Virus record (IMG/VR): IMGVR_UViG_3300027749_000034
Length of the DNA stretch: 64,000 bases
Reading direction: 5' to 3' (one strand)
Source: a virus
Taxonomy: Duplodnaviria > Caudoviricetes
The translations under genes were made by a program, and so were the position numbers. The notes beneath the pieces were generated by a model. It ran no database searches. It worked only from the letters and a program-made list of their open reading frames with translations, and was not told the origin of the DNA. Position 1 is the first letter of the stretch, and each line of letters starts with the position of its first letter. Below are positions 8,369 to 55,440 of the stretch, piece by piece.

Positions 8369-10702
8369 ATGGATAATCAAATAAGAGATATGAGCAAAAG
8401 TATAATAAATGTTGTAAAGAGAGATGGACACCGAGAGCCATTAGATATAAACAAAATCCATTTGATGGTAGAAGAGGCATGCGAAGGGTTAACTGGAGTC
8501 AGCGTAAGTCAAATTGAAATGAATGCAGATTTGCAGTTCAATGATGGCATTACCACTGCTGACATCCAAGAAATTCTTGTGCGTAGTGCTAGCGATTTAA
8601 TTAGTCTAGACAAGCCAAAATATCAGTATGCCGCGGCCCGTTTATTGCTATACGGTTTACGCAAAGATGTATTTGGACAATTTGATTATATCCCATTGTA
8701 TGATCTAGTTAAGAAGAATGTTGAGCGTGGTGTATATGATGCTGAATTGTTGACTCAATATACCGAAGCAGAATGGCGTCAGCTAGATGTCTATATCAAT
8801 CACGAACGCGACTTAGAATTCACCTACGCTGGCATGCGCCAAGTTGTGGACAAGTATCTGGTTCAAGATCGTAGCAATGGTTGTGTGTTTGAAACTCCAC
8901 AGTACATGTACATGATGATTGCGGCAACATTGTTTGCCACCTATCCAGCTGACAAGCGCCTGAGTTATATTCGTCGTTACTATGATGCAATTTCTACATT
9001 TAAAATTAATATTCCTACTCCTGTAATGAGCGGAGTGCGTACTCCTATTCGACAATTTGCCAGTTGTGTGCTGGTTGATGTTGATGACACATTACCTAGT
9101 ATCTTCAATAGTTCTACCGCCGTTGGTTATTACATTGCACAACGAGCTGGCATTGGTCTAAATCTTGGTCGCATTCGTGCCATCAATTCAAAGATTCGCG
9201 GCGGCGAAGTGGCACACACTGGTGTTGTCCCCTTCTTAAAAGTATTTGAGTCAGTGGTGCGTAGCTGTACACAAAATGGTGTGCGTGGCGGAAGTGCCAC
9301 TGTGCATTTCCCAATTTGGCACAAAGAAATTGAAGACATACTGGTGTTGAAGAACAACAAAGGAACAGAAGATAATCGTGTTCGCAAGTTGGACTATTCA
9401 ATCCAGTTAAGCAAACTTTTCTATGAGCGACTAATTACCGATGGTGATATCACATTGTTCTCACCACATGATGTTCCTGGCCTGTACGAAGCATTTGGCA
9501 ACAACGATGTATTTGATGCGCTGTATGTAAAATACGAAAACAATTCTAAGATTCCAAAGAAGACTGTGAAGGCCATGACATTGTTTGGACAGATGCTGAA
9601 AGAAAGAGCAGAAACCGGCCGCATCTATATCATGAACATTGACCACTGTAACAGTCACAGTAGCTTTCAAGATATGATTCGCATGAGTAACCTGTGTCAA
9701 GAAATTACATTGCCAACAGATCCAATTCAATCCATGGATGATGTTGAAGGAGAAATTGCCCTTTGTATTCTGAGTGCAATCAATGTTGGCAATCTAAGAG
9801 AGTTGGATGATCTTAAAAACCTAACAGAACTTGCTGTTCGTGCGCTGGATCAGATCATTGACTATCAGCGTTATCCAGTTGTGGCCGCAGAACGCAGTAC
9901 CAAGGCTCGTCGCAGTCTTGGAATTGGTTACATTGGCATGGCACATTACCTGGCCAAGAAAGGTTTGAAGTACAGCGACCCAGAAGCCGCCCGGTCAGTC
10001 AATCGTTTAACGGAAGCATTCCAGTATTACTTGATCAAGGCCAGTGTGCAGTTGGCCAAGGAAAAAGGCCCATGTGAATTCTTTGACCGTACAAAATACA
10101 GCCAGGGCATTTTACCAGTTGACACATACAAGCGTGAAGTTGATGAGTTTCTTGGAACTGAGTTACATTACGATTGGGAAGCCCTACGCAGAGAAGTTGC
10201 AGAGCATGGCATGCGTCACAGCACACTGAGCGCACAAATGCCCAGTGAATCAAGTAGTGTGGCCAGCAATGAAACAAACGGTATTGAGCCACCGCGTGCC
10301 GCAATGAGTACAAAGAAGAGCAAGAAAGGCCCGTTGAAACAAATTGTTCCTCAATATAATTCATTGAAAAATGATTATTCATATCTGTATGAAGAAGGTG
10401 TCAATGATGGTTACATTCGTATTGTAGCCGCAATGCAAAAATACTTTGATCAAGCAATTTCAGGAAATTGGTCATACAATCCAAAACACTACCCAGACAA
10501 CGAAGTACCAATGAGTGTGATGTTCACTGATCTACTGACCACATATAAATTGGGTTGGAAAACCAGTTACTACCAGAATACATACGACATGAAAGGTGAA
10601 GATGAAGATAACATACAATCTGTGTCAGACACTCATCATAATTTACAACCAACACTATTGATACCCGATAGTGATGAAGCTTGCGAAGCTTGCACAATTT
10701 AA
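8369..10702 (+). CDS. nrdA: ribonucleotide reductase class Ia alpha subunit
   Basis: N-terminal ATP cone (VVKRDG), FASCVL, SNLCQEI, C-terminal CEAC; no intein or intron seen. Confidence 0.97.
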   Translation: MDNQIRDMSKSIINVVKRDGHREPLDINKIHLMVEEACEGLTGVSVSQIEMNADLQFNDGITTADIQEILVRSASDLISLDKPKYQYAAARLLLYGLRKDVFGQFDYIPLYDLVKKNVERGVYDAELLTQYTEAEWRQLDVYINHERDLEFTYAGMRQVVDKYLVQDRSNGCVFETPQYMYMMIAATLFATYPADKRLSYIRRYYDAISTFKINIPTPVMSGVRTPIRQFASCVLVDVDDTLPSIFNSSTAVGYYIAQRAGIGLNLGRIRAINSKIRGGEVAHTGVVPFLKVFESVVRSCTQNGVRGGSATVHFPIWHKEIEDILVLKNNKGTEDNRVRKLDYSIQLSKLFYERLITDGDITLFSPHDVPGLYEAFGNNDVFDALYVKYENNSKIPKKTVKAMTLFGQMLKERAETGRIYIMNIDHCNSHSSFQDMIRMSNLCQEITLPTDPIQSMDDVEGEIALCILSAINVGNLRELDDLKNLTELAVRALDQIIDYQRYPVVAAERSTKARRSLGIGYIGMAHYLAKKGLKYSDPEAARSVNRLTEAFQYYLIKASVQLAKEKGPCEFFDRTKYSQGILPVDTYKREVDEFLGTELHYDWEALRREVAEHGMRHSTLSAQMPSESSSVASNETNGIEPPRAAMSTKKSKKGPLKQIVPQYNSLKNDYSYLYEEGVNDGYIRIVAAMQKYFDQAISGNWSYNPKHYPDNEVPMSVMFTDLLTTYKLGWKTSYYQNTYDMKGEDEDNIQSVSDTHHNLQPTLLIPDSDEACEACTI

Positions 10703-10710
10703 GGATGCAG

Positions 10711-11811
10711 ATGTCAGCGACCGTTTTTAATCAGAATAAAGTAGACTTTACCAAACAACCTATGTTTTTTGGCGAGGCCCTAAATGCCCAGCGGTTTGAT
10801 GTATTCAAGTATCCGGTGTTTGATAAACTCACACAAACACAGCTTGGATACTTTTGGAGACCCGAAGAAGTGAGTTTGCAAAAAGATCGTAGTGACTACA
10901 TGGACTTCCGTGATGAACAGAAGTTTATTTTCACTGCCAATCTAAAGTATCAAATACTGCTTGACAGCGTACAAGGTCGTGCGCCAGCAATGGCATTCAT
11001 GCCATATTGTTCGTTGCCTGAACTTGAAGGATGCATGAACGCATGGCAATTCTTTGAAAACATTCACAGCAGATCATACACACACATCATTAAAAATGTT
11101 TACAGTGATCCAAGCGAAGTATTTGATACCATGCTGGATGATGAGAAAATTATTGCCAGAGCCAAATCAGTGACCAAATCATACGATGAGTTCATTGCCG
11201 CGGCACAGCAATTTACAGTGACAGGCAAAGGTTCCATGCGAGATGTCAAGAAGAAGCTGTTCTTGGCCATGGTAAATGTAAACGCACTTGAAGCACTTAG
11301 ATTTTTTGTCAGCTTTGCATGTAGCTTTGCATTTGGCGAACTGAAGAAAATGGAAGGCTCTGCTAAAATTATTAGTTTGATTGCCCGAGACGAAAGTCAA
11401 CATTTAAGCATTACTAGCCATATCATTAAAAATTGGCAAAGAGGCGATGACCCAGAAATGCAAGAAATTGCACAAGAAAATTATTCGGCCATTGGTGAAA
11501 TCTATGACCAAGTTGTTGCTGAAGAAAAAGATTGGGCAGACCATTTGTTTAGCCGCGGAGCCATTGTTGGTTTAAATGAACGCCTATTACACCAGTATGT
11601 TGAATATATTGGTAATCGCCGCCTTAAAGGGCTAGGAGTTGAACAACGATATGACCGAAGTGCTAACGATAATCCGTTACCTTGGACAGAGCATTGGACA
11701 AGTAGCAAGGGACTTCAAGTGGCCCCACAAGAAACCGAAATTGAAAGTTATGTCATTGGAGGAATTAAGCAAGATGTTAGCAAAAGTACCTTCGCCGGCT
11801 TCAAGCTCTGA
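10711..11811 (+). CDS. nrdB: ribonucleotide reductase class Ia beta subunit
   Basis: FWRPEEV, ENIHSRSY, EALRFFVSF, RDESQH di-iron motifs; QETEIESY tail. Confidence 0.97.
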   Translation: MSATVFNQNKVDFTKQPMFFGEALNAQRFDVFKYPVFDKLTQTQLGYFWRPEEVSLQKDRSDYMDFRDEQKFIFTANLKYQILLDSVQGRAPAMAFMPYCSLPELEGCMNAWQFFENIHSRSYTHIIKNVYSDPSEVFDTMLDDEKIIARAKSVTKSYDEFIAAAQQFTVTGKGSMRDVKKKLFLAMVNVNALEALRFFVSFACSFAFGELKKMEGSAKIISLIARDESQHLSITSHIIKNWQRGDDPEMQEIAQENYSAIGEIYDQVVAEEKDWADHLFSRGAIVGLNERLLHQYVEYIGNRRLKGLGVEQRYDRSANDNPLPWTEHWTSSKGLQVAPQETEIESYVIGGIKQDVSKSTFAGFKL

Positions 11812-12058
11812 GTTTTCTGAACTATATACAATGGAAGGTTGTGCGGCTTGCAAAAGCTCTATAACCAAACTTATTGATGCAGGGTATGAATTTGATATTA
11901 TTCACTACACTGATGAAAGTTCAACCCGATGTAATCGGGTGTGGGAACATAGACTAGGAAAGAATCCAAATAGTGTTCCACAGTTTTGGTACAAAGGCCA
12001 ATACATTGGCGGTAGTGTTGAAATTGCAAAATTTATAAAGGATAATGATGTTACTTGA
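11774..12058 (+). CDS. glutaredoxin
   Basis: CAAC active site, SVPQ, YIGG; start uncertain (GGAGG-linked ATG 11774 inside nrdB, or 11831). Confidence 0.8.
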   Translation: MLAKVPSPASSSEFSELYTMEGCAACKSSITKLIDAGYEFDIIHYTDESSTRCNRVWEHRLGKNPNSVPQFWYKGQYIGGSVEIAKFIKDNDVT

Positions 12059-12365
12059 TATTAAGAAAAATGGCGATGTAATAAGTTTAAAAATGAGTTC
12101 AGGTGAAGAACTCATTGGAATGTATGTTGAAGAAGACAATGCCAACTACACAATTGATCGTCCAGTTACATTGACTGTTGGCCCCAAAGGTGGTCCAGCA
12201 CTGACTCCTTACCTTATGACTGTTAGTCCAGATAGGACTAGAAATTTAAAAATCAACAAGAATCTTGTTGTCACAGTAGCATCAACTGACACGCAATTGG
12301 CTGATCAGTATACTTCTGCTTTGAGCGGAATACAAGTGGCACCAAAAGGCATGGTCTTCAACTAA
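12045..12365 (+). CDS. conserved phage hypothetical protein (Sm-like fold)
   Basis: VISLKMSSGEELIG beta-strand pattern. Confidence 0.65.
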   Translation: MMLLDIKKNGDVISLKMSSGEELIGMYVEEDNANYTIDRPVTLTVGPKGGPALTPYLMTVSPDRTRNLKINKNLVVTVASTDTQLADQYTSALSGIQVAPKGMVFN

Positions 12366-12366
12366 A

Positions 12367-12621
12367 ATGACAGCCGTACACAGATTAGGAGATCCCAATG
12401 AGGATAACGGTAAAATTACAAGTATTCCTCAGGGAACTGTCTTTGCAAACGAACTCTTAATCAGTATTGATGGCAGTGATGTTGAAAATGAACCAAATAC
12501 AGCCAACGGTAGCCCTACTGTTTTTATTGGTGGCATCCCAGTAAACCGACAGGGTGACGAAGATGAAAGCGGTAGCAGGCGAGCTGAGGGCAGTGGAAAT
12601 GTGTTTGTAGGACCCGACTAA
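12367..12621 (+). CDS. PAAR-domain baseplate spike tip
   Basis: AVHRLGD, GSPTVFIGGIPVNRQGD, GSGNVFVG repeats. Confidence 0.88.
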   Translation: MTAVHRLGDPNEDNGKITSIPQGTVFANELLISIDGSDVENEPNTANGSPTVFIGGIPVNRQGDEDESGSRRAEGSGNVFVGPD

Positions 12622-12672
12622 TATTTTGTAAAACTTCTATAAATATAGGTTTAGAAATGGGAGTTTTATTCA

Positions 12673-13341
12673 ATGTGTTCAGTAAAGCCAACAGATACCG
12701 GAGCCAGACAAACTACAGAATCGGGTCAGATTTTTTACCCTGATACTCCTTCTGGCCATGCCGCAGCCACTGAAGATATGAAAGCAGCCGGAGGTGGTGG
12801 AGACAAAGGACACCCACCTGATAATACACCTCCACCAACCGATTTTACTGATTGTTCAACATATTCAGATGATAAATGGGATACAGGCTGTAGTAAAAAT
12901 TTCCGTTTTTCCCAAATGAAATATAAGCCAGTTGATGGACAAGGAAGTGCGCCAAAAGCAGACTTGGCATGCAATTGGCAAAAATTATGTCAACAATGTT
13001 TAGACCCAATCAAAGCACAGTTTCCTGGTATGGCCATTAATTCTGGATATCGCACACTGGCATATGACGCCACATTAGGTGGCACAGGAAAGGGCGATCA
13101 CACATATGGTAAAGCCGCTGATATTTCTCTAGGCGGTCCAGAAGGTGCCAAACAAATGTTCAAATGGATTAGAGCAAACAACATACCATATAGCCAATTG
13201 ATATTTGAAAATAATTGGGTACATATATCTCTGGGCGGTGGCTCTAATGCGGCGTCAGCGGTCGGAGTCACTAGAACAGGTACTGCACCATATCAATGGT
13301 ATGCTAAAAATGCAACAAACTTGCCACCTGACCTAGCATAA
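12673..13341 (+). CDS. peptidase M15A-like Zn endopeptidase
   Basis: INSGYR, H-x6-D (HTYGKAAD), WVHIS zinc ligands. Confidence 0.85.
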   Translation: MCSVKPTDTGARQTTESGQIFYPDTPSGHAAATEDMKAAGGGGDKGHPPDNTPPPTDFTDCSTYSDDKWDTGCSKNFRFSQMKYKPVDGQGSAPKADLACNWQKLCQQCLDPIKAQFPGMAINSGYRTLAYDATLGGTGKGDHTYGKAADISLGGPEGAKQMFKWIRANNIPYSQLIFENNWVHISLGGGSNAASAVGVTRTGTAPYQWYAKNATNLPPDLA

Positions 13342-13351
13342 GTATCATACC

Positions 13352-15178
13352 ATGGCAGACATTCCAGTTATACCCGGCGTTTCAGTTACCCCAATGGGGA
13401 TACTCAATAGACCAATCAAAGACATCATTTGTGCTATCCTTTTTGGTGGCATCAATAACATGCTCAAAGGAAATTTACTTTGTGTAAATTTAGACTTGGA
13501 AAAATTGTTAGATGAACCAATTGTTGCAGACATAAAAGCCGAGTTGACAGATCTAAAGAATGAACTCAAGGCCATGGAAGAAGCGTCTGGTATCAAAGAT
13601 GTGCTTGGCCGAGTCAATCAGGGCATCGCTGAAGTTCAAAATCTACTGGCACTGGATGGCTTATGTAAAATTCCACTGAAGTGTCCTCCGATACCCGACA
13701 TCCTGAACATGACCATTGACGCAGAGTTTGCCACTGCCAATGCAATTTTGGATGATATTGGTAGATTAGAAAAACCAAAATTATGTATCAATGGTGCTGG
13801 TGGTCTCAATACTGGTTCATACAATCCCAGTAGCATCTTGGGTAGAATACAAAGCAACATTACCAGACTGGGAACTATTCCTGGTCATGAATTAGACATA
13901 TTAAAAAGACAATTGACACGAGTGACTGCTGGACTAAAGGCCAGTCTCAATAGACAGTTGTTTCCAGATTTCAGACACAAGACAGATTTGACAACAGGCA
14001 GGCCATATGCTAAAGGTGGTGCTGGTGTAATACTGGCCAGTGCCGCTGAACAGACCAAACTGAAGGCCAAGATTGCCGCTGACTCAGCATCGCCTGCAGG
14101 CCTACTGGCATGGCAACAGGTAGCAAACATGCCTGGAGCATCTGCCGCGGATATTCAAGCATCATATCCGCCAGGTGACGCCAGTCTAAAAGATGCAGTC
14201 AACATAGCACAGACTCTGGTAGGTGGAATGAAAAAGACTGCCAGTTATCCTTCCACAGCCAATGGAATTATAAATGCAAACATGTGGCCCGGTGTGTTGG
14301 GTCCAGACATATATGCTATGGCAGTACAGGCAATGAGTCCACAGGACCCGCTATTTGTACAACAAGATCCACTGTATGATTATTGCGGTAAGTTCATTGG
14401 ATACAATGAAACAGTTATAACCGGCGACTCTGCATACAAAGGTGGCGACCCAAAGAAAGATGCTGTATTGAATCCACACAAAACAAACTTTGAATTCAAT
14501 TGGATCGCAGATAGACAATGTTGGGCAGTCACTGGCGTACAAAGCGAGCAAGTGGTAAATGGAAGAAAGGACACTTATCTAGATGCAAATCCAGAAATTG
14601 AATTGCATCGAGGGTATAGTCATATTCTAAGTGTGCCAAGTGCTGACATCAGTGGATTCGTTATGAGTGGCGACTATCCAACAGCAACTAGTACGGCTCC
14701 AGAATTTTTTATATGTCGAGTTGGAAACGATCTAAGGCCACTGATTGCCAATGGCGAAATTGTCAAGTTCAACATGGGACTAAGCAGACTTGAGACATCA
14801 GAAGTATTGGACAATGCCAATGGTTGGCTACCAAGTGAAACAGAACATGCGGGTATTGATGGTCCAGAAGGATACAATCGTAGATTAGAAAACCCAATGG
14901 GTACCACATTGTATTTTTCAGTCGAACAACGACAATACTCGGGTACTGTTCCTCCGCTGTACCCAAGCAAGGACATTTGGTGGTATAATCCAACCACTCT
15001 TATAACACAACAGTGGATACCAGATGGCGAGGCCAGTGGTCAATGGGTTGTAGTATCTGATCAGGATAGAAACAATCATTGGTATGGATCAAGTCCTTTG
15101 CAGAGCGATATAAGTGCAAACTATCTGGCCTACAGTAATCGAAATGGTTCAGTTTTTGGCCTATTAAAATTAATTTGA
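13352..15178 (+). CDS. hypothetical (putative virion/baseplate) protein
   Basis: 608-aa ORF next to PAAR/M15; TAAGTA at 13339. Confidence 0.7.
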   Translation: MADIPVIPGVSVTPMGILNRPIKDIICAILFGGINNMLKGNLLCVNLDLEKLLDEPIVADIKAELTDLKNELKAMEEASGIKDVLGRVNQGIAEVQNLLALDGLCKIPLKCPPIPDILNMTIDAEFATANAILDDIGRLEKPKLCINGAGGLNTGSYNPSSILGRIQSNITRLGTIPGHELDILKRQLTRVTAGLKASLNRQLFPDFRHKTDLTTGRPYAKGGAGVILASAAEQTKLKAKIAADSASPAGLLAWQQVANMPGASAADIQASYPPGDASLKDAVNIAQTLVGGMKKTASYPSTANGIINANMWPGVLGPDIYAMAVQAMSPQDPLFVQQDPLYDYCGKFIGYNETVITGDSAYKGGDPKKDAVLNPHKTNFEFNWIADRQCWAVTGVQSEQVVNGRKDTYLDANPEIELHRGYSHILSVPSADISGFVMSGDYPTATSTAPEFFICRVGNDLRPLIANGEIVKFNMGLSRLETSEVLDNANGWLPSETEHAGIDGPEGYNRRLENPMGTTLYFSVEQRQYSGTVPPLYPSKDIWWYNPTTLITQQWIPDGEASGQWVVVSDQDRNNHWYGSSPLQSDISANYLAYSNRNGSVFGLLKLI

Positions 15179-15203
15179 CAAGCCGATCAAATAAGTATAT
15201 ACT
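15175..15203 (+). promoter_or_regulatory. sigma70-type promoter of tmRNA
   Basis: TTGACA-17-TATACT. Confidence 0.85.
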
Positions 15204-15209
15204 GTAAGT

Positions 15210-15500
15210 TATTGCTGTATGAAGCAAAGAGAAAAGTGTTCTGGACGGGGGTGCGAATCCCCCCAGGTCCACCATAAGCACATAGTTGTCCTAGATGAAA
15301 GAAACCTCTTAGGGCTCTAGTGGGGATTGTGTGCTTTTGATGGGCCTGACCTAGATTCGACAGGGCAACAAGTAACAGAGTGGACAGCACGACAGCGATA
15401 GTCGTAAAAACTAAACAAAAGTAACCGCAAACGACTCACAGTTCGCATTAGCGGCCTAACAGCCACTTAGGGTAAGACATACCTCGTAACAGAAACTCAG
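15210..15500 (+). ncRNA. ssrA: tmRNA, circularly permuted two-piece form
   Basis: T-arm plus CAGGTCC-ACCA (ends 15274) precedes the 5' end GGGCCTG (15342) with G3.U; tag ORF ANDSQFALAA*; ends are approximate. Confidence 0.93.
15427..15459 (+). other. tmRNA proteolysis tag reading frame (ANDSQFALAA*)
   Basis: gca aac gac tca cag ttc gca tta gcg gcc taa. Confidence 0.9.
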
Positions 15501-15528
15501 AAAAGGTTGCTTCGGCAACCTTTTTCTT
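15501..15528 (+). terminator. intrinsic terminator
   Basis: AAAAGGTTGC-TTCG-GCAACCTTTTT. Confidence 0.9.
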
Positions 15529-15576
15529 TATAAGTATTTTTATAATACGAACATTATCACACTAAAGAATATATCA

Positions 15577-16032
15577 ATGGCTGAAATATTAATTGCAACA
15601 GAACAAGATAAAAGCGGCACAGATGTGACAATTTATATGGCGCAAACAATTGCCGGAAGTCCGGTGTATCCATTTTATTTAAAAAATTATGCAGAATTAA
15701 TGGATGCAGGTTTGGCTCAATCTCTGCTGTATTCATCAAATCGAACCAAAGCAGTATATGCAACGATTGACAATAAGGTTGTTGGAAACATAGTTTATGA
15801 AATACAAGAAGATGTTTTCAAGTCCTGCTACTTGTTGTTTAGTGCAGTTGACGAAAATTTTAGACAGCGTGGAATTTTGAAATTGATGCACAACCACTTT
15901 GAAGTTATTATTAAAAAACAAGGTGCAAAAAAATTGTACAGCTTTGTCCATGTAGATAATGCGCCCCGAATCGCCAGTTGTGTGGGCCTAGGTTTAGAAA
16001 AGCAATTTTATAAAATGTATAAAGTGTTGTAA
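15577..16032 (+). CDS. GNAT acetyltransferase
   Basis: VDENFRQRGI acetyl-CoA motif, HVDN motif. Confidence 0.8.
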   Translation: MAEILIATEQDKSGTDVTIYMAQTIAGSPVYPFYLKNYAELMDAGLAQSLLYSSNRTKAVYATIDNKVVGNIVYEIQEDVFKSCYLLFSAVDENFRQRGILKLMHNHFEVIIKKQGAKKLYSFVHVDNAPRIASCVGLGLEKQFYKMYKVL

Positions 16033-16072
16033 AAATACAACACTTGACCATTGTTTCCCTTTGTGCTATAAT
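16025..16072 (+). promoter_or_regulatory. palindromic operator plus sigma70 promoter
   Basis: TGTTGTAAAAATACAACA (16025-42) then TTGACC-17-TATAAT. Confidence 0.8.
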
Positions 16073-16095
16073 ACTGTATGAAACAGGAGAATCAT

Positions 16096-16599
16096 ATGGA
16101 ATTAGTAGAAAGAGCCAGAATTTTTGCAACAGCGGCCCATACCGCTGTGGCACAATTACGGAAGTACACTAATGAGCCGTACATTGTGCATCCTGCCGAA
16201 GTGGCCGGCATTGTTGCCACAGTTCCCCACACTCCCGAAATGTTAGCGGCCGCTTGGTTGCATGATGTGGTTGAAGACACTGGTGTTACCAACGAAGTGA
16301 TCCGTGCTGAATTTGGCGCCACAGTTGCAGAGTTGGTTGGCTGGTTAACTGATGTCAGCAGGCCCGAACAAGGCAATCGTGCTGTCCGCAAGGCAATAGA
16401 CCGGGCACATACTGCTGGTGCACCTGCTGAAGCACAGACTGTAAAGTTGGCCGACTTGATCTCAAACACCAGAAGCATTGTGGCACAAGATGTTGCCTTT
16501 GCCAAAGTGTACTTGGAAGAAAAGCGGTTGTTGTTGGAAGTGTTGACTCGTGGTGATGCCACATTGATGGCAGAAGCCAGGACCAGTGTGTCTAAATGA
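16096..16599 (+). CDS. HD-domain small alarmone hydrolase-like protein (SpoT/Mesh1 family)
   Basis: AH...RKY..EPYIVHP, WLHDVVEDT, VKLADLISN. Confidence 0.85.
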   Translation: MELVERARIFATAAHTAVAQLRKYTNEPYIVHPAEVAGIVATVPHTPEMLAAAWLHDVVEDTGVTNEVIRAEFGATVAELVGWLTDVSRPEQGNRAVRKAIDRAHTAGAPAEAQTVKLADLISNTRSIVAQDVAFAKVYLEEKRLLLEVLTRGDATLMAEARTSVSK

Positions 16600-16763
16600 T
16601 CAGCGAACAAGACCTTGTGTTTCGTTTGAGAAAAAGAGCAGAGATCCGGCGGCAAATTTCGACTCGAAAGAGTGTACAAGAAGGAGCCCCGGATCGAATT
16701 GCCGACCTGTTGGAAGAAGCCGCAGATGAAATCGAAAGACTTAGAAAAAATGAACCAGCCTAG
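16596..16763 (+). CDS. small hypothetical protein (not in ORF track)
   Basis: MISEQDLVFRLRKRAEIRRQ...DLLEEAADEIERLRK, fills the gap with overlaps at both ends. Confidence 0.7.
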   Translation: MISEQDLVFRLRKRAEIRRQISTRKSVQEGAPDRIADLLEEAADEIERLRKNEPA

Positions 16764-17220
16764 ATTGTACATGTTGATTGGAATCCCCGGTGCAGGTAAA
16801 AGTACCTGGATTAAAAATCAGCCTTGGGCCTTGGGGCTGACTGTGGTCAGTACAGATGCGTTTGTAGAAGATTATGCCAGAGCCCAAGGCAAGACCTATT
16901 CCGAAGTGTTTGAGGAATACATGCCCACTGCTGTTGACCTAATGAGTCAACAGATTGTATTTGCTCGAGATCACGGTCATACTGTAATTTGGGATCAGAC
17001 CAGTACCACAGTTAAAAGTCGTGCTAGAAAGTTTCGCATGTTGCCCAACTACTATCACATTGCTGTGGTGTTTAAAATACCAGACCATGTAGAATTAGCT
17101 CGCCGCTTGGCCGCAAGACCTGGCAAAGTAATTCCAGATCGAGTGCTGGATGATATGATTATTAATTGGGATGAGCCAGAAGAAGAAGAAGGCTTTGACG
17201 AGATCTGGTATATATCGTAA
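16750..17220 (+). CDS. P-loop kinase (polynucleotide kinase/AAA_33-like)
   Basis: LIGIPGAGKST, VSTD, WDQTS. Confidence 0.82.
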   Translation: MNQPRLYMLIGIPGAGKSTWIKNQPWALGLTVVSTDAFVEDYARAQGKTYSEVFEEYMPTAVDLMSQQIVFARDHGHTVIWDQTSTTVKSRARKFRMLPNYYHIAVVFKIPDHVELARRLAARPGKVIPDRVLDDMIINWDEPEEEEGFDEIWYIS

Positions 17221-17756
17221 TGAAAACATGGGTTACTTCTGACATACATTTTAGTCACACCAACATTTTAAAATTCTGTGCTGACAGTAGGCCGTTTCAC
17301 GACATCACTGAAATGAATACTGCAATTATCAACAATCACAATAGTGTGGTTGGTTATGATGATTTGGTTTACATACTGGGTGACATTGCATTTACCGATG
17401 CAATTTCAGCATCCAGGCTGTTGAATCGAATGAATGGAAAAAAGATTCTGATCAAGGGCAATCACGATGTCAAGCTGTTGAGAGATCAAACTTTTAGAAA
17501 CTGTTTTGCAGAGATACACGAATACTTGGAACTTGGTTACAAAGAATTCCGGATTGTATTGTTTCATTATCCAATTTGGGAATGGGATATGATGCATAGA
17601 GGTGCGCTACACTTCCATGGTCACTGCCATGCTAGGCCCACCGGTGTTCCTGGCAGGATCTTGGATGTCAGCATGGATGGAAACAATTGCTTTCCTTACA
17701 GTATGGATGAAGCAGTTCAATTGGCCATGAAAAAAATTGTCAGAAGTCACCATTGA
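17220..17756 (+). CDS. calcineurin-like metallophosphoesterase
   Basis: SDIHF, LGD, GNHD, FHYP, HGHCH. Confidence 0.88.
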   Translation: MKTWVTSDIHFSHTNILKFCADSRPFHDITEMNTAIINNHNSVVGYDDLVYILGDIAFTDAISASRLLNRMNGKKILIKGNHDVKLLRDQTFRNCFAEIHEYLELGYKEFRIVLFHYPIWEWDMMHRGALHFHGHCHARPTGVPGRILDVSMDGNNCFPYSMDEAVQLAMKKIVRSHH

Positions 17757-17812
17757 CAACTGCGATAACTTCAGCTATAATAACTTTGCAACAATCATTT
17801 TAGGAGATTTAT

Positions 17813-18346
17813 ATGATCACAATGAAAGAGTGGATGGAATTGGTTGACTATAAAATTACCGAAGGTAGTGAATATGGTTGGTCGTGTTATGGCCCAAATG
17901 CTTACTGTTTAGACTCATGGAATGGAGTACATGGTGCAGGTGGATATAGTTTTAGCATTGTATTCAGTACTAAAACACAAAAGGTCTACGAAGTCAGTGT
18001 ATGTGACTATACCAATGACCGTGCCTATCGTATGATTGTAGAGAACAAGCAGGACAAGCACCGCAAGGAAGCAGAATCCAAAAGCGAACTGGCCAATCAA
18101 GCATGGGACGATGTCAACTATATTGATTTGGATGTTGATGATGATTTTTTCCAAAAATCACTGGCCATCAAAGAAGGAGATGAGTATGACACTCGTATAC
18201 TGGTTCCGGTTGACTTCAGTGATGACGATTTGTTGCACTACATGAAAATAGCACATGATATGGACATCACATTCAACGAATTTGTTGAAATGGCACTAGA
18301 AGAAGCCATAGCAAAGCATCAAATATTGCCAAAATCCGACGATTAA
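17813..18346 (+). CDS. hypothetical protein
   Basis: 177-aa ORF, AGGAG RBS, upstream TTGACA/TATAAT. Confidence 0.75.
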   Translation: MITMKEWMELVDYKITEGSEYGWSCYGPNAYCLDSWNGVHGAGGYSFSIVFSTKTQKVYEVSVCDYTNDRAYRMIVENKQDKHRKEAESKSELANQAWDDVNYIDLDVDDDFFQKSLAIKEGDEYDTRILVPVDFSDDDLLHYMKIAHDMDITFNEFVEMALEEAIAKHQILPKSDD

Positions 18347-18350
18347 GGTT

Positions 18351-18368
18351 ATTACAGATTGTTTACAA
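18351..18368 (-). promoter_or_regulatory. possible Pho-box-like tandem repeat
   Basis: TTGTAAA-CAAT-CTGTAAT (11-bp period) on minus strand, upstream of porin-like gene. Confidence 0.3.
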
Positions 18369-18436
18369 TCTATAAATAGTGTTCACAGTTAAGTATTTTC
18401 GAATACTTGGGTGTATATAAAAAGGAAATATAATTT

Positions 18437-18997
18437 ATGAAAAAAGTCTTAGCAATTTTAGCACTAACTATTAGTGGCTCAGTATTTGCAGGTTCTATCA
18501 CAGTTGAAGGTCAGAACATTGACGGTCAAAGTGGCGGCGCCGATCAGAAAAACTTCAACATGACAGCAAAGGAAAGTATCAACAATACTTTTGCAGGCCA
18601 TATTCAAGTTTCAACAACTCAGACAGATAATACCAATGCATTGTCAACTCGTCTTGAGGCTGGTTTGACCGGTTCTGTTGCAGTATTTGGTCCAGTGACT
18701 GGTTATACCACAGTTGCAGTAGGTGAGAAATACAGTTCCACTGGTAGTTTTGCTTACTACTCAGTTGAGCCAGGTCTCTCTGCACCAATTGGTAGCACTG
18801 GTCTAACTGCAAAGGTTGGATACCGTTATCGTACTTCGTTTGATAATTCCAGCGTTAACTTGGATACAACTCAAACAGTTCGTGCTGGCGTATCATATGC
18901 TCTTAGCAAACAAGATGCAGTTGGTGTCCGTTACGACAAGGTAACAGGCGATTCCAAGCAAAATATTATGGCAGTCAACTACACTCGCAGTTTCTAA
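18437..18997 (+). CDS. outer-membrane beta-barrel (porin-like) protein
   Basis: Sec signal ending VFA, alternating amphipathic strands, C-terminal YTRSF. Confidence 0.8.
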   Translation: MKKVLAILALTISGSVFAGSITVEGQNIDGQSGGADQKNFNMTAKESINNTFAGHIQVSTTQTDNTNALSTRLEAGLTGSVAVFGPVTGYTTVAVGEKYSSTGSFAYYSVEPGLSAPIGSTGLTAKVGYRYRTSFDNSSVNLDTTQTVRAGVSYALSKQDAVGVRYDKVTGDSKQNIMAVNYTRSF

Positions 18998-19017
18998 TTT
19001 TTTAAATTAGTTTCACC

Positions 19018-19043
19018 AAAAGCCACCACTACGGTGGCTTTTG
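19018..19043 (+). terminator. intrinsic terminator
   Basis: AAAAGCCACC-ACTAC-GGTGGCTTTT. Confidence 0.8.
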
Positions 19044-19112
19044 TGTTTTTGCAGTACATAACTATAATGTAAGACAACAGTTTTACGACACACTCAAACA
19101 CAGGAGATTATT

Positions 19113-19379
19113 ATGAGTACAATTGCCCCTAACGGCTACCAACTTCGTCTTGAACTACTCAAGATGTCAAAAGAAATGCTAGAGCAAGACTGGCATGCAC
19201 ATCGCGAATCGCTTCGGTCTCAATGGGAACAAGAAGTTAACTTGGTCCAAATTCGAGCCCATTCAATTGATCAACCAGTTGAAGCAGTTCCAGCACAACC
19301 CGCCTTCCGACCTTTTCCTACTGAGGAAGAGATCATCAAGAAGGCCAAGGTCCTAAACGAGTTCATTGCACAGAAGTAA
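19113..19379 (+). CDS. hypothetical protein
   Basis: 88-aa ORF, AGGAG RBS. Confidence 0.75.
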   Translation: MSTIAPNGYQLRLELLKMSKEMLEQDWHAHRESLRSQWEQEVNLVQIRAHSIDQPVEAVPAQPAFRPFPTEEEIIKKAKVLNEFIAQK

Positions 19380-19498
19380 TAAACGGTAGTTTCGCCAAAA
19401 GAAGTCTATGTGGCTAACACCTCATAGACTTTCTGTTTAAGTAATGTTACAATGTTAAAAGCATCACAATTAGTGATGTAATAATTTAAGGAAACACA

Positions 19499-19777
19499 AT
19501 GTTAAAGAAATTTGATGAAACCACTAAACAGTATAAACTGTTCAAAGCCCTTGTTATCAATGGCGAGTCATTGACAGAAGCCGCAATTGAAAAGCGTTTT
19601 GGTATCAAGAACCCAACTGCAACAATCAGCGTTATTCGTCAACGCGGTTATGCAGTTTATGCAAATCCCCGTAAAGCAGGTAATGGCGTTCAGGTCACTG
19701 AATATCGCCATGGTGAAGCCAGCCGTCGTATGGTAGCTTTGGCATACAAAGCACAGGCCATGGGCATCACAATCTAA
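19499..19777 (+). CDS. putative winged-helix DNA-binding protein
   Basis: LTEAAIEKRFGIKNPTATISVIRQRGY HTH-like segment. Confidence 0.6.
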   Translation: MLKKFDETTKQYKLFKALVINGESLTEAAIEKRFGIKNPTATISVIRQRGYAVYANPRKAGNGVQVTEYRHGEASRRMVALAYKAQAMGITI

Positions 19778-19800
19778 TTTGCTTAAAAATTAGACAAATT

Positions 19801-19823
19801 AGCCCCTTAATTGGGGCTTTTTT
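19801..19823 (+). terminator. intrinsic terminator
   Basis: AGCCCC-TTAATT-GGGGCTTTTTT. Confidence 0.85.
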
Positions 19824-19828
19824 GCGGC

Positions 19829-19884
19829 TGTAGCATAAAAACAACAGAAAAACGGTTGACAGCAAAACAGTTTAATAGTATAAT
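19829..19884 (+). promoter_or_regulatory. degenerate operator plus sigma70 promoter
   Basis: TGTAGCATAAAAACAACA then TTGACA-17-TATAAT. Confidence 0.75.
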
Positions 19885-19914
19885 ATACAAATACAAATAC
19901 ATGAAAGTTCAACT

Positions 19915-21984
19915 ATGAAACTCAAAGCACTAACCTTAGCAATTTTATTGGCCCTGGGCAGTACAGCCTACGCTCAGACCAAAGCACTAAATTATGAAGC
20001 GCAGGAAATTTCAACAGCACTTGTAAAAACAGGTGTACCAGTTGCATGGTCCAGGGGGTTCACTGGCAAAGGTATAACAATTGCCATTGTTGATCAGGGC
20101 TTTGATTTAACTCATGCAGACTTTGCCAATAAAATTGTTGGCAGTAAAAATTTCTATGATCCAGCATCAGCGGTAACTTGGGGCCATCATGGAACACTGA
20201 TGGCCGGCATCGCGGCCGCAAATAAAAACGGTTCAGGTACAGTTGGTGTTGCACCTGATGCTAACTTATTGTTGGCTCAAGTGGGAGCTGGTGGCAGTTC
20301 AGTTGGCATTAATTTTACCGCAGTAAAGCAAGCAGTGGATTGGGCCAGTGCCAACGGCGCATCAGTTATCAATCTGAGCCTTGGATCCGTGTTTGATCCA
20401 AATTTTACCAATGGTATCTCTCAAATGTCTGCAGGAATTTATAAAGCACCTGCCGCATATGGATCATTGTATGGTTATAGTACAACCGATGTGCAAGCAT
20501 TTGCTGTAGGTACCAACAGAGGAAGTATCATTGTTGCGGCCGCAGGCAATCAGGGACTGGCATACTCACAGGTACCTGGCATGTTTGCCACGCAGGTTGA
20601 TAGCACAGGTAAACTAGTACTTGGCGGCAAAATGCTGATTGTTGGATTTGCTGATACCAACGGCAATATTGCCACAGCATCAAACAAGGCCGGCTCCATT
20701 TGTAATAACATATCTGGCTCTACCTGTAACGATCCTTATCTTGTCAAAGACTTTTATGTTGTTGCGCCAGGCATGCAGTTGTATGGCTCAGTGGCCAATC
20801 AATATGGATTGAAAGATGACAAAGGCAATTTGAACACCAGCGGCTCAATTGCAGTTACTGGATCCAGTGGCGCCACGGCCTATGTGTCAGGTGGCGTGGC
20901 GTTGATGAAACAGGCGTGGCCACAGTTAAGGTCAGAACAAATTGTTTCATTGATTCTAAATACAGCCACGCCAATGGGCGATTCAAATGTTACCGGTCGC
21001 GGCATGGTTAACTTTGACAAGGCAACCCAGCCAATGGGCACAGTTACACTGGCCAACATGACCAAATTGAATGGCTCTGGACCACAAGGTAAAACAGTTG
21101 GCCTCACTGGCACCGGAGTAGCTACATCTGGTGCAATTAGTTTGGCCACCAGCTCAGTGCTACAAAATACTCAAGTGGTTGACAGCATTGGTCGTAACTA
21201 TACTGTAAACTTAACACAGGCAGTTGGATTTACCAACTCAATGAGTTACCAATATGCCAGTCCTTGGATGGCTATGGCTTCGTCAAACTACAGACACATG
21301 GCAGTACCATTTGGTAAAGATGGTGTAATAACATTCATGACCAGTGACACAGGTACCGCAAGTCAATATGAGTGGCAACATAGTGAGCGCACTCGACTTA
21401 ACTTTGAAGTGGGTGCATTAAAGGAATTGAATAGTGTACTTGGTTCACAAGGTGGTGGCGCATTGGCATTTGGCGGTAGCAATACCACATGGTTTGGTGG
21501 CGGCGGCAGTTACAAGATTGCCGAGAATACTGCACTGATTGGAAAATATACTGTGGGCTTTACCAAAACCTCCAATGTACAAGATAGTATGGTACAATTA
21601 GACTCTACAATTATAAGCGACTCATGGAAGCTTGGAGCATCACAAGAACGAGTGTTTATCAATCAAGGCAAATTACATGATGAAATTACTCTAGCCGTGG
21701 CACAACCAGTACAAGTACGAAGTGGTAGTGCAACAGTAACTGGAGTCACATCTTACACATACACAGACAATGGTGATGGCACAAGTACTGCAAATCCGCA
21801 GTCACAAACAATGCGTTCAAGCTTGGCTCCGCAAGTTCGTGAAATGGATCTGGTACTTGGTTATACTGTCAAACATACCAATGCAACCAGTGTTGGATTT
21901 AATGTGGTACGCCAGTTCAATGCAGGTGGTGCCGCAGGTGTACAAGCAACAGGATTTTCAATAATGGCCCGTAGCGTATTTTAA
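19915..21984 (+). CDS. S8 subtilisin-like protease with C-terminal autotransporter-like beta domain
   Basis: Signal peptide; triad IAIVD / HGTLMAG / GSSGA; AAAGN oxyanion Asn; terminal Phe. Confidence 0.85.
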   Translation: MKLKALTLAILLALGSTAYAQTKALNYEAQEISTALVKTGVPVAWSRGFTGKGITIAIVDQGFDLTHADFANKIVGSKNFYDPASAVTWGHHGTLMAGIAAANKNGSGTVGVAPDANLLLAQVGAGGSSVGINFTAVKQAVDWASANGASVINLSLGSVFDPNFTNGISQMSAGIYKAPAAYGSLYGYSTTDVQAFAVGTNRGSIIVAAAGNQGLAYSQVPGMFATQVDSTGKLVLGGKMLIVGFADTNGNIATASNKAGSICNNISGSTCNDPYLVKDFYVVAPGMQLYGSVANQYGLKDDKGNLNTSGSIAVTGSSGATAYVSGGVALMKQAWPQLRSEQIVSLILNTATPMGDSNVTGRGMVNFDKATQPMGTVTLANMTKLNGSGPQGKTVGLTGTGVATSGAISLATSSVLQNTQVVDSIGRNYTVNLTQAVGFTNSMSYQYASPWMAMASSNYRHMAVPFGKDGVITFMTSDTGTASQYEWQHSERTRLNFEVGALKELNSVLGSQGGGALAFGGSNTTWFGGGGSYKIAENTALIGKYTVGFTKTSNVQDSMVQLDSTIISDSWKLGASQERVFINQGKLHDEITLAVAQPVQVRSGSATVTGVTSYTYTDNGDGTSTANPQSQTMRSSLAPQVREMDLVLGYTVKHTNATSVGFNVVRQFNAGGAAGVQATGFSIMARSVF

Positions 21985-21994
21985 GGAAAAACAG

Positions 21995-22192
21995 ATGCAG
22001 GATCGTGACCATGTACGGCAACGAATGACTGAAATTATGGAGCTCATAGACAGCTCTATTCAGTTGACAGACGATAGAGAAGAGCTTATAATGTTAGCAT
22101 GTGCCATGTTACAACGCACAGTAGAATTACTCGATGACACTATTGGTGAACAAGGTCGAGATACCATATTAAAAGGATCACTAAGTGAGTAA
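21995..22192 (+). CDS. hypothetical protein
   Basis: 65-aa ORF with RBS. Confidence 0.65.
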   Translation: MQDRDHVRQRMTEIMELIDSSIQLTDDREELIMLACAMLQRTVELLDDTIGEQGRDTILKGSLSE

Positions 22193-39098: not shown

Positions 39099-39183
39099 GG
39101 AGAAGAAGCATCAATGGTGATGCAGTGGACTGTAAATCCGCCGCCTTCGGGCACGACTGGTTCGATCCCAGTATTCTCCACCA
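39099..39183 (+). tRNA. tRNA-Tyr(GTA)
   Basis: Type II cloverleaf, loop CT GTA AA. Confidence 0.95.
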
Positions 39184-39188
39184 ATTTA

Positions 39189-39280
39189 GGAAGTGTGGCC
39201 GAGTCCGGTTTATGGCACTAGTCTTGAAAACTAGCGGAGGGTTAAACCTCCCGTGAGTTCGAATCTCACCGCTTCCGCCA
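39189..39280 (+). tRNA. tRNA-Ser(TGA)
   Basis: Type II cloverleaf, loop CT TGA AA, G73. Confidence 0.96.
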
Positions 39281-54849: not shown

Positions 54850-55440
54850 ATGAGTTTAGTGCCAATCGTAGTAGAGAAGACCGGAGCAGGTGAGCGCAGT
54901 TACGACATTTACAGTCGTTTACTCAAAGAGCGAATTGTATTGCTTGAAGGCGAAGTACATGACCAAATGGCCAATCTGATTGTTGCCCAGTTGCTGTTCT
55001 TAGAAGCAGACAACCCAGAAAAAGAAATCAATCTTTTTATTAACAGCCCTGGTGGAAGCATTACAGCAGGCATGGCAATCTACGACACAATGCAATATAT
55101 CAAAAGCCCTGTAAGCACCATTGTCATGGGTCAAGCATGTAGCATGGGCAGTTTCTTAGCGCAGTCTGGTCAAGCAGGTCGACGGTTTGTATTGCCCAAT
55201 GCAAGACACATGATCCACCAACCTTCAGGTGGCACTCGTGGCATGGTAAGTGATATTGAAATCAGTTACAATGAAATTGTATTTTGGAAAAAACGACTAA
55301 CAGAGTTATATGTCAAGCATAACTCAGCTGGTAAAACATATCCACAGTTTGAAAAAGACATGGATCGAGATACATTCATGAGCGCCGAAGAAGCTGTTGC
55401 ATACGGCTTGGCCGACGGTATCATGACAAAACGCCCATGA
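54850..55440 (+). CDS. clpP: ATP-dependent Clp protease proteolytic subunit
   Basis: [23 protein letters not shown] (Ser), MIHQP (His), DRD. Confidence 0.96.

Follow-up and report, generated by a model that had tools for sequence, protein, structure and literature searches.

An intact circularly permuted ssrA gene in an uncultured large freshwater phage

Introduction

tmRNA is an RNA that frees stalled ribosomes; its one-piece form in Escherichia coli encodes the tag ANDENYALAA. Processing of a two-piece tmRNA is said to have been established in Caulobacter by Keiler, Shapiro and Williams in 2000, and a betaproteobacterial two-piece form was reportedly described by Sharkady and Williams in 2004. 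Phages carry two-piece tmRNAs as well. Across 18,146 phage genomes, Buchholz et al. (2022, PMC9004378) counted 53 unique ones in isolated phages; Table S1 of that study includes phiCbK-like, Synechococcus, Pelagibacter and other phages.

Here, we describe an intact, genuine permuted (two-piece) ssrA gene in an uncultured large freshwater phage, detected far beyond chance and bearing all of the sequence and structural hallmarks of a two-piece tmRNA. Judged from its sequence, the gene is likely to work as a phage-encoded ssrA, circularly permuted and of the structural type found in betaproteobacteria.

Results

The window, by which we mean the whole 64-kb stretch of DNA analysed, is probably part of a genome of near 340 kb. 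Its content is phage-like, with DnaB, RNR, an endolysin-like peptidase and viral relatives, and it holds 27 tRNAs by ARAGORN and 29 by Rfam. A megablast search of positions 10000-22000 against isolated phages gave no match, and the product of the upstream 608-aa gene had none by tblastn or by exact-protein look-up; one shared protein is about 25% identical to its counterparts in T4-like cyanophages. A collinear viral relative in IMG/VR has a tmRNA gene in the same place (86% nucleotide identity), with flanking proteins that are 54-99% identical. The part of this jumbo-type phage that holds the tmRNA gene is also rich in proteostasis and translation genes, including at least 27 tRNAs, ClpP and an HD/kinase/phosphoesterase cluster.

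With default settings, ARAGORN called a permuted tmRNA (tmRNA*) with the tag ANDSQFALAA, and the Rfam model RF01850 (beta_tmRNA), also at default settings, scored best, aligning end to end (positions 1-331 of 331) with 136.5 bits (cut-off 84; E = 1.6e-41). The model RF04321 (tmRNA_permuted) matched at positions 1-213 of 213 with 121.8 bits, the cut-off being 47. In the gene, the T-arm, the acceptor 3' strand and the CCA, which make up the 3' half of the tRNA-like domain, precede its 5' half. The initial annotation had read this order as that of a permuted gene and had proposed ARAGORN in permuted mode and the Rfam two-piece models as checks; ARAGORN, RF01850, RF04321 and the covariation described below all agree with it. 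The elements it had named (the promoter TTGACA-17-TATACT, an acceptor piece ending at 15274 with a T-arm and CAGGTCC-ACCA, a 67-nt intervening hairpin, a coding piece starting with GGGCCTG at 15342 with G3.U70, a GCA resume codon with the tag ANDSQFALAA*, and a terminator) are likewise all in place (Table 1). Because the gene order is permuted, a mature RNA made from it would have to consist of two separate pieces.

Table 1. Features of the permuted tmRNA gene, and the ClpP gene of the same window
Feature	Position	Strand	Details and basis
Sigma-70-type promoter	15175..15203	+	11/12 consensus matches; -35 TTGACA 15175-15180, 17-nt spacer, -10 TATACT 15198-15203; position recurrent in relatives
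Acceptor piece (3' part of tRNA-like domain)	15208..15274	+	5' end placed from the promoter
P2d 5' strand	15213-15217	+	Acceptor piece
P2a 5' strand	15237-15243	+	Acceptor piece
T-arm, loop UGCGAAU	15247-15263	+	Acceptor piece; stem GGGGG/CCCCC, 15247-15251 with 15259-15263
Acceptor 3' strand CAGGUCC	15264-15270	+	Acceptor piece; followed by A73 (15271) and encoded CCA (15272-15274)
Intervening segment, 67 nt	15275..15341	+	Presumed removed in maturation; folding
Coding piece	15342..15527	+	Rfam alignment, pairing, covariation
Acceptor 5' strand GGGCCUG	15342-15348	+	Coding piece
P2a 3' strand	15361-15367	+	Coding piece
P2d 3' strand	15385-15389	+	Coding piece
4-bp hairpin where pseudoknot 1 is expected	15390-15404	+	Covariation
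Tag reading frame	15427..15459	+	Resume codon GCA at 15427, ANDSQFALAA, stop UAA
Helix 5, around the stop codon	15450-15467	+	Coding piece
Short stem GGGU/ACCU	15470-15484	+	Coding piece
Intrinsic terminator	15500..15529	+	Folding; the terminal hairpin modelled in RF01850
ClpP protease subunit, full-length, 196 aa	54850..55440	+	PF00574, 259 bits, profile positions 3-181 of 182

The two acceptor strands pair in a 7-bp stem that carries the elements of alanine identity, namely G15344.U15268 (equivalent to G3.U70), A73 and the CCA. Among 83 parsed viral relatives, G3.U70 and A73 are present in every one and the CCA is encoded in 75. The T-arm resembles the TPsiC type in its 5-bp stem and in the 7-nt length of its loop, but the loop has a G at the near-universal U55, a replacement seen in roughly one in four viral relatives. 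The acceptor piece also carries a conserved purine-rich segment.

Covariation among contigs of related phages shows that this two-piece structure is maintained. In a structure-blind MAFFT alignment of 19 viral-relative sequences, the acceptor stem and T-stem are 100% paired, with three acceptor pairs changed on both sides and G3.U70 identical in all 19. P2a is 97% paired, also with changes on both sides, and P2d is 95.7% paired, four of its five pairs having changed on both sides. The covariation score was 0.219, compared with 0.086 in shuffles (0/500 reached 0.219) and at most 0.086 when the partners were slid. An additional inter-piece helix, GUUAU (15208-15212) with GUAAC (15486-15490), was considered and rejected, since inspection of the alignment by eye showed a 5' side that is variable among the relatives and a 3' side that is nearly invariant.

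The intervening segment contains no ORF and folds at -23.5 kcal/mol (z = -3.24) into a hairpin whose closing stem has 12 bp (15276-15287 paired to 15325-15336), leaving UUGAU as a single-stranded leader between the hairpin and G1. Its 67 nt compare with a median of 81 nt in the 83 viral relatives, among which the sequence is unconserved save for the leader before G1. The segment is presumably excised during maturation.

Transcription would start at about 15208-15211. Promoter spacing is recurrent among the relatives: counting as promoter-bearing the 38 contigs that score at least 9/12 matches, the -10 element ends 34-37 nt upstream of TTCTGGAC in 24 and exactly 35 nt upstream in 14 contigs, and one relative has a perfect promoter, TTGACA-17-TATAAT. 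At the other end of the gene, the terminator hairpin (15500-15525, followed by a U-run) has the core GGUUGC-UUCG-GCAACC lengthened by A-U pairs and folds at -14.5 kcal/mol (z = -5.0; 0/200 shuffles as good); a simple terminator scan of the window did not list this 3' hairpin, which folding supports. We also compared contigs from four freshwater or riverine metatranscriptomes with positions 15000-15700. Three runs cover only 15207-15278 and about 15338-15503, leaving the flanks and most of the spacer uncovered, and one run has a contig across 15233-15385. Contigs cannot show RNA ends, and the majority of these continue into unlike sequence and so derive from related tmRNAs.

The tag frame opens with an alanine resume codon, has no start codon and ends in a hydrophobic ALAA-type C-terminus, and the U at -5 and A at -4 before it (15422-15423) are invariant in the relatives (alignment columns T241 and A242). 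Across 41 unique 10-codon tags, entropy is 1.25 at third positions and 0.61 and 0.55 at first and second positions. The tag frame evolves like a translated frame, its third codon positions varying about twice as much as the other two. Between helix 2 and the resume codon, where pseudoknot 1 is expected, we found the 4-bp hairpin only and no second stem. The hairpin covaries (CGAC/GUCG, CACC/GGUG, CAUC/GAUG, UAAC/GUUA), and in roughly half of the relatives the element at this place is longer. In E. coli, a hairpin can stand in for pseudoknot 1, so we regard its absence here as a variant rather than a disqualifying feature. In the RF01850 alignment, the middle P2 helices are purine-rich and flagged as non-canonical and the 3' pseudoknot stem is mostly unpaired; a second stem of the 3' pseudoknot was not established for the window sequence. 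Together with the T-loop G and the reduced pseudoknot 1, the P2 and 3' pseudoknot features make four departures from the bacterial beta-type consensus, which weigh against a functional gene.

The exact 36-nt run of T-arm, acceptor strand and CCA occurs in 1 of 185,579 species genomes. This single match lies on a phage-like contig of 23 kb on which tRNAs are dispersed. The contig belongs to a MAG labelled Haliscomenobacter, and the MAG carries a standard tmRNA of its own in another place. The same 33-nt core without the CCA is present in 11 viral sequences, the window included. Haliscomenobacter was considered as a host and set aside, binning alone being too weak to name one. The type of tmRNA is an unreliable guide to the host as well, because Melnitz, a phage of OM43, carries an alpha-type gene; OM43 is placed in Gammaproteobacteria in PMC9004378. 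No SmpB (PF01668) was found among the 77 ORFs of the window or in five related viral records, three of them 95-100% complete. SmpB is presumably supplied by the host, although a phage smpB may lie elsewhere in a genome of which 64 kb out of probably near 340 kb were covered. Published phage tmRNAs likewise lack a phage-encoded SmpB.

The initial annotation had also pointed to a ClpP in the same window. This protein is indeed encoded there, scoring 253 bits against solved bacterial ClpP with the GQACSMG, MIHQP and DRD motifs aligned (Ser-His-Asp), and it is 75% identical to the ClpP of a 342-kb phage with the same tag. Its suggested tie to the tag is a matter of co-occurrence and is speculative.

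Discussion

Extrapolating from the two-piece tmRNA of Caulobacter and from trans-translation in general, we can propose how such a gene would operate. Host RNA polymerase would start at the sigma-70 promoter and stop at the terminator, giving a single precursor. RNase P may cut 5' of G15342 while 3' processing bares the encoded CCA at 15274, freeing the 67-nt hairpin, so that the host's tRNA-processing enzymes would yield an acceptor piece of about 65 nt and a coding piece of about 185 nt. The acceptor stem, P2a and P2d would hold these together. Host AlaRS would charge the RNA via G3.U70 and A73, and, with host SmpB and EF-Tu, the charged RNA would enter stalled ribosomes, a dependence that the absence of smpB from the window and the related records fits. 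Translation would restart at GCA and append ANDSQFALAA, whose ALAA end may direct products to ClpXP-type proteases. For a large, tRNA-rich phage, the gain may be ribosomes kept free during infection.

As an alternative to this ribosome-rescue function, the RNA might be a decoy, titrating SmpB of the host or blocking its trans-translation. Such a role has been proposed for the form found in mycobacteriophage DS6A, for which an inhibitory effect in E. coli is described (PMC4131195, PMC11915505). The lack of a phage smpB in the window or related records and the reduced state of pseudoknot 1 and the 3' pseudoknot would suit such a role. Against it, the tag frame, resume codon, U-5/A-4, helix-5 stop and ALAA end are kept with synonymous-type variation across phages, and a pure decoy needs none of them; we consider a decoy very improbable. 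Passive carriage of host DNA, with ssrA derived from an integration site or from the bacterial flank of a mis-called viral contig, is less probable still and largely refuted. Prophages and genomic islands commonly integrate at tmRNA genes (PMC4383910), and some of the IMG/VR matches may be host flanks. However, the gene sits inside a 64-kb run of phage-like genes that lie mostly on one strand, both of its flanks are shared with a viral relative carrying the tmRNA at the same place, and it has its own promoter and terminator. The families that a Pfam scan listed for the 77 window ORFs include no integrase, and the one species genome with the exact 36-mer has it on a phage-like contig and holds a standard tmRNA of its own elsewhere.

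A further idea, already raised in PMC9004378, is that tagging serves the phage ClpP, together with a phage or host ClpX, either to recycle amino acids or to remove host proteins. This overlaps with ribosome rescue and differs in purpose only. The ALAA end of the tag and the full-length window ClpP with its intact triad would fit, as would the bona fide ClpP (272 and 253 bits) of both near-complete jumbo relatives with this tmRNA type and the true ClpX (505 bits; cut-off 371) of the 342-kb relative with the same tag. Yet 39 kb separate the ClpP gene and the tmRNA gene, the Pfam scan of the 77 window ORFs detected no ClpX, and a complete 150-kb relative that bears the tmRNA lacks ClpX and matches ClpP only weakly (39.6 bits), in a prohead-protease-like way. 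The co-occurrence is also based on five records only, ClpP being frequent in large phages anyway, and tmRNA tags only stalled nascent chains, so that selective targeting of proteins is unexpected from the known mechanism. We therefore regard this purpose as unlikely. The odds seem similarly long for the broader proposal of a long-lived beta-type tmRNA lineage that circulates among phages, is paired with phage ClpP (and in some relatives with phage ClpX) and borrows only SmpB. The marks of the proposed lineage would be the T-loop G55, the acceptor stem GGGCCUG/CAGGUCC and the hairpin that replaces pseudoknot 1. If this proposal were true, freshwater jumbo phages would run their own tag-and-degrade system with a tmRNA not recently copied from their hosts.

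The initial annotation had called a permuted form unusual in a phage. This is not supported, given the 53 published examples (PMC9004378), at least 89 further permuted tmRNAs of the same type in our IMG/VR scan, and the ease with which default tools detect the gene. Its remark that such genes may be missed by annotators is fair, as Xanthomonas phage BUDD has an unannotated two-piece tmRNA beneath a "hypothetical protein" CDS. The window gene is an ordinary further example of the phage two-piece tmRNAs already documented in many aquatic phages, and its value beyond correct annotation is small: a well-documented beta-type example joins those known. The general question is how phages benefit from a tmRNA without SmpB, and an uncultured example makes it no more testable.

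Among described systems, permuted ssrA genes are likewise carried by the aquatic phages Melnitz, the pelagimyophages HTVC008M and Mosig, phiCbK-like Caulobacter phages and several Synechococcus myophages (PMC9004378). These are also large, tRNA-bearing aquatic phages whose ARAGORN-detectable genes have their own early-type promoter and a tag ending in LAA, with no phage smpB reported. The Mosig gene is permuted by RF04321 (93.6 bits). Melnitz and Mosig have the alphaproteobacterial type (RF01849 for Mosig) and carry a glutamine riboswitch. The window gene belongs to the beta type (RF01850) instead, and a search for a riboswitch of the Melnitz kind gave no match even at E <= 1. With the betaproteobacterial two-piece tmRNA (RF01850), the window gene shares the order of parts, the tRNA-like domain, an ANDxxFALAA-type tag and the terminal hairpin. 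It differs in being phage-borne, in its non-canonical middle P2 and 3' pseudoknot stem, in the simple hairpin at pseudoknot 1, in its T-loop (UGCGAAU rather than the consensus UUCGAUU) and in an intervening segment of 56 nt in the model alignment where the model has 18. The one-piece tmRNA (SsrA, RF00023) has in common with it an alanine-accepting tRNA-like domain, the GCA resume codon, U-5/A-4 and a tag that starts with AND and ends in ALAA, but the window gene is circularly permuted, with a predicted two-piece RNA and fewer pseudoknots. Finally, the tRNA-like-domain-only tmRNA of DS6A (PMC4131195) is likewise a phage-borne derivative without a phage smpB; that form has no tag frame, whereas the window gene keeps a conserved one.

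A permuted tmRNA gene in the window

ARAGORN called a single tmRNA in the window, at 15182-15550, flagged as permuted (tmRNA*) and with the tag ANDSQFALAA*. An Rfam search at curated thresholds matched the betaproteobacterial-type model beta_tmRNA (RF01850; cut-off 84 bits) over its entire length at 15161-15527 (136.5 bits, E = 1.6e-41) and the general two-piece model tmRNA_permuted (RF04321) at 15213-15459 (121.8 bits). The permuted identity and the tag peptide proposed in the initial annotation are thus borne out, and the layout that it described at 15175-15528 agrees exactly with the sequence. The promoter and intervening hairpin that it reported also held up, as did its terminator, a 3' hairpin that folds with a U-run though it was absent from the output of a simple terminator scan.

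Features of the tmRNA gene, and the ClpP gene of the same window
Feature	Position	Strand	Observation
Promoter TTGACA-17-TATACT	15175-15203	+	11/12 consensus positions matched
Encoded CCA	15272-15274	+	read from sequence
Spacer, 67 nt, CCA to G1	15275-15341	+	hairpin with 12-bp closing stem, -23.5 kcal/mol, z = -3.24 (folding)
G1, first base of coding piece	15342	+	read from sequence
3' hairpin and U-run	15500-15529	+	-14.5 kcal/mol, z = -5.0 (folding)
ClpP	54850-55440	+	full-length; 253 bits against bacterial ClpP of solved structure; catalytic motifs align, triad intact

Conservation of the structure and the tag

A T-arm motif scan of IMG/VR returned at least 120 stretches, and ARAGORN called permuted tmRNAs in 89 of the 125 loci examined. 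These calls comprise 84 from the T-arm scan matches listed, L123 and L124 from a protein scan, the GenBank phages Mosig and BUDD, and window-independent relatives. The window gene and 18 related sequences (n = 19) were aligned with MAFFT, blind to structure, and pairs were counted on a structure taken from the window sequence. On this basis the acceptor stem, formed by the upstream 3' strand with the downstream 5' strand, and the T-stem were paired in 100% of cells, and the helix 2 segments P2a and P2d in 97% and 95.7%. Changes on both sides were seen in 3/7 acceptor, 1/5 T-stem, 2/7 P2a and 4/5 P2d pairs. The covariation score of 0.219 compares with 0.086 in shuffles, none of 500 equalling it, and with at most 0.086 in a slid-partner control. 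A 4-bp hairpin that replaces pseudoknot 1 covaries as well (CGAC/GUCG, CACC/GGUG, CAUC/GAUG, UAAC/GUUA). The alanine identity element noted earlier is supported: the acceptor stem has G.U as its third pair in 19/19 aligned sequences, and G3.U70 together with A73 occurs in 83/83 parsable viral genes among the matches listed. The anatomy of the window gene and its conservation are established by these comparisons.

The tag also carries a signature of translation. U-5 and A-4, upstream of the resume codon, are invariant in the alignment, and in 41 unique 10-codon tags among the matches listed, entropy at third codon positions (1.25) is about twice that at first (0.61) and second (0.55) positions. 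In the same tags, changes in codons 1, 2 and 10 are confined to third positions, and those in codons 3 and 9 almost so. Since variation is concentrated at third positions, the tag behaves as a translated frame, a pattern indicating that coding-type constraint acts on it.

The promoter-to-gene distance is the same as in the window in many relatives among the matches listed. The promoter of L123, a close relative from IMG/VR, is a perfect consensus, and in four other loci (L080, L108, L082 and L042) a TAAATA-type, T4 late-like element replaces the sigma-70 promoter at the same distance upstream, which suggests that tmRNA expression is timed differently among phages. The 67-nt spacer of the window gene contains no ORF. 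Two loci have long spacers with complete ORFs, one of 342 nt with 101 codons (L113:6765-7429) and one of 211 nt with 66 codons (L019:1161-1677).

Putative function and the ClpP gene

By analogy with the Caulobacter two-piece tmRNA and trans-translation in general, a single precursor would be transcribed, RNase P would cleave just 5' of G15342, and 3' trimming would lay bare the CCA, with the acceptor stem and helix 2 keeping the two pieces joined. Host AlaRS would charge the molecule, and host SmpB would deliver it to stalled ribosomes, where ANDSQFALAA would be added. No SmpB was found among 77 window ORFs. A search of five related viral records, of which three are 95-100% complete, also found none, and its control genomes were positive; the tmRNA therefore probably relies on host SmpB. 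Buchholz et al. weigh the same possible tmRNA roles (PMC9004378).

As the initial annotation stated, the window encodes ClpP, which proved to be of bacterial type and full-length. A true ClpP is present in both near-complete jumbo relatives with the same tmRNA type. One of these, the 342-kb G003, shares the tag and encodes a ClpP 75% identical to that of the window (G003:C1:90787-91371) and a true, full ClpX (505 bits, G003:C1:328453-329616). Neither true ClpP nor ClpX was found in a complete 150-kb relative. The co-occurrence of tmRNA and ClpP in a handful of genomes is suggestive and is not evidence of a functional link.

The phage and its relatives

The window DNA is found in freshwater metagenomes, and a megablast of 10000-22000 gave no nucleotide matches to isolated phages; T4-like cyanophages and Melnitz match one window protein distantly (~25% identity). 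Besides ClpP, the window encodes an M15 peptidase, a PAAR protein, a DnaB-like helicase and the two subunits of RNR, and many of its proteins have no family assignment. ARAGORN called 27 tRNAs, three of them tRNA-Met(CAT), and Rfam 29; a tRNA-like Rfam match additional to the ARAGORN calls (39099-39180, 35.3 bits) immediately precedes a tRNA-Ser at 39189.

Collinearity of L123 with the window extends over ~13 kb, where protein identity ranges from 54% to 99%. The L123 tmRNA occupies the same place, flanked by the same pair of genes; its nucleotide identity is 86% and its tag is identical. Because L123 is 40.7 kb at a CheckV completeness of 12%, a genome of roughly 340 kb is suggested. PAAR-motif, M15 peptidase and 608-aa proteins are encoded upstream of the tmRNA (12367-15178), the last with neither a family nor a match in isolated phages. 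At 67-74% identity, these three genes diverge most between window and L123 and may therefore serve in host interaction or at the tail tip. The 608-aa gene stops at 15178, within the -35 box of the tmRNA promoter; L123 has ~800 nt between the two (L123:7878-8679) that the window lacks. Downstream, a GNAT gene (15577-16032) is followed at 16078-17756 by a RelA/SpoT-type HD domain protein (HD_4), an AAA_33 kinase and a metallophosphoesterase, a possible nucleotide-alarmone or RNA-repair cluster that is kept in L123 at 92-99%.

Comparison with known two-piece tmRNAs

The phage tmRNAs listed in 2014 were one-piece only (PMC4131195). Buchholz et al. (2022) then counted 53 unique two-piece tmRNAs in 18,146 phage genomes with ARAGORN, mostly marine or aquatic, their Table S1 naming phiCbK-like, Synechococcus, Pelagibacter, Stenotrophomonas and other phages (PMC9004378). 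The 2025 tmRNA database paper, the source of RF04321, lists 79 phage tmRNAs (PMC11915505). We confirmed a permuted tmRNA in Pelagibacter phage Mosig, where it is annotated, and an unannotated one in Xanthomonas phage BUDD (ON758385.1, ~167.2-167.7 kb; L002:2980-3431; ARAGORN tmRNA*, tag VAANDADYSVARYA; RF04321, 77.5 bits), which adjoins a tRNA cluster and is overlapped by a CDS annotated 'hypothetical protein'. Two-piece phage tmRNAs are thus already known: the initial annotation was right in its identification of the window tmRNA and wrong in calling a permuted form unusual in a phage.

An exact match to the 36-nt stretch of T-arm, acceptor strand and CCA was found in just one of 185,579 species genomes, a MAG labelled Haliscomenobacter. 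It lies on a 23-kb contig (NZ_JBBAKG010000090.1, L126) on which tRNAs are dispersed. This contig, with a permuted beta-type tmRNA at 2244-2649 (110.5 bits), resembles phage DNA that was binned with a bacterium; the standard tmRNA of the MAG itself is on a different contig (RF00023, 134 bits). Contig 1 of the same MAG bears another, weaker permuted tmRNA (G001:C1:132863-133196, L128:1564-1799; RF04321, 67.4 bits) that has no ARAGORN call. The 33-nt core, the 36-mer minus CCA, is present in at least 11 viral sequences, the window included. Together, the single phage-like genomic match and the viral distribution of the core hint at a lineage propagated by phages. The window gene departs from the bacterial beta-type consensus in four respects: the middle of helix 2 is purine-rich and non-canonical, a hairpin stands in for pseudoknot 1, the 3' pseudoknot is reduced, and the T-loop reads UGCGAAU.
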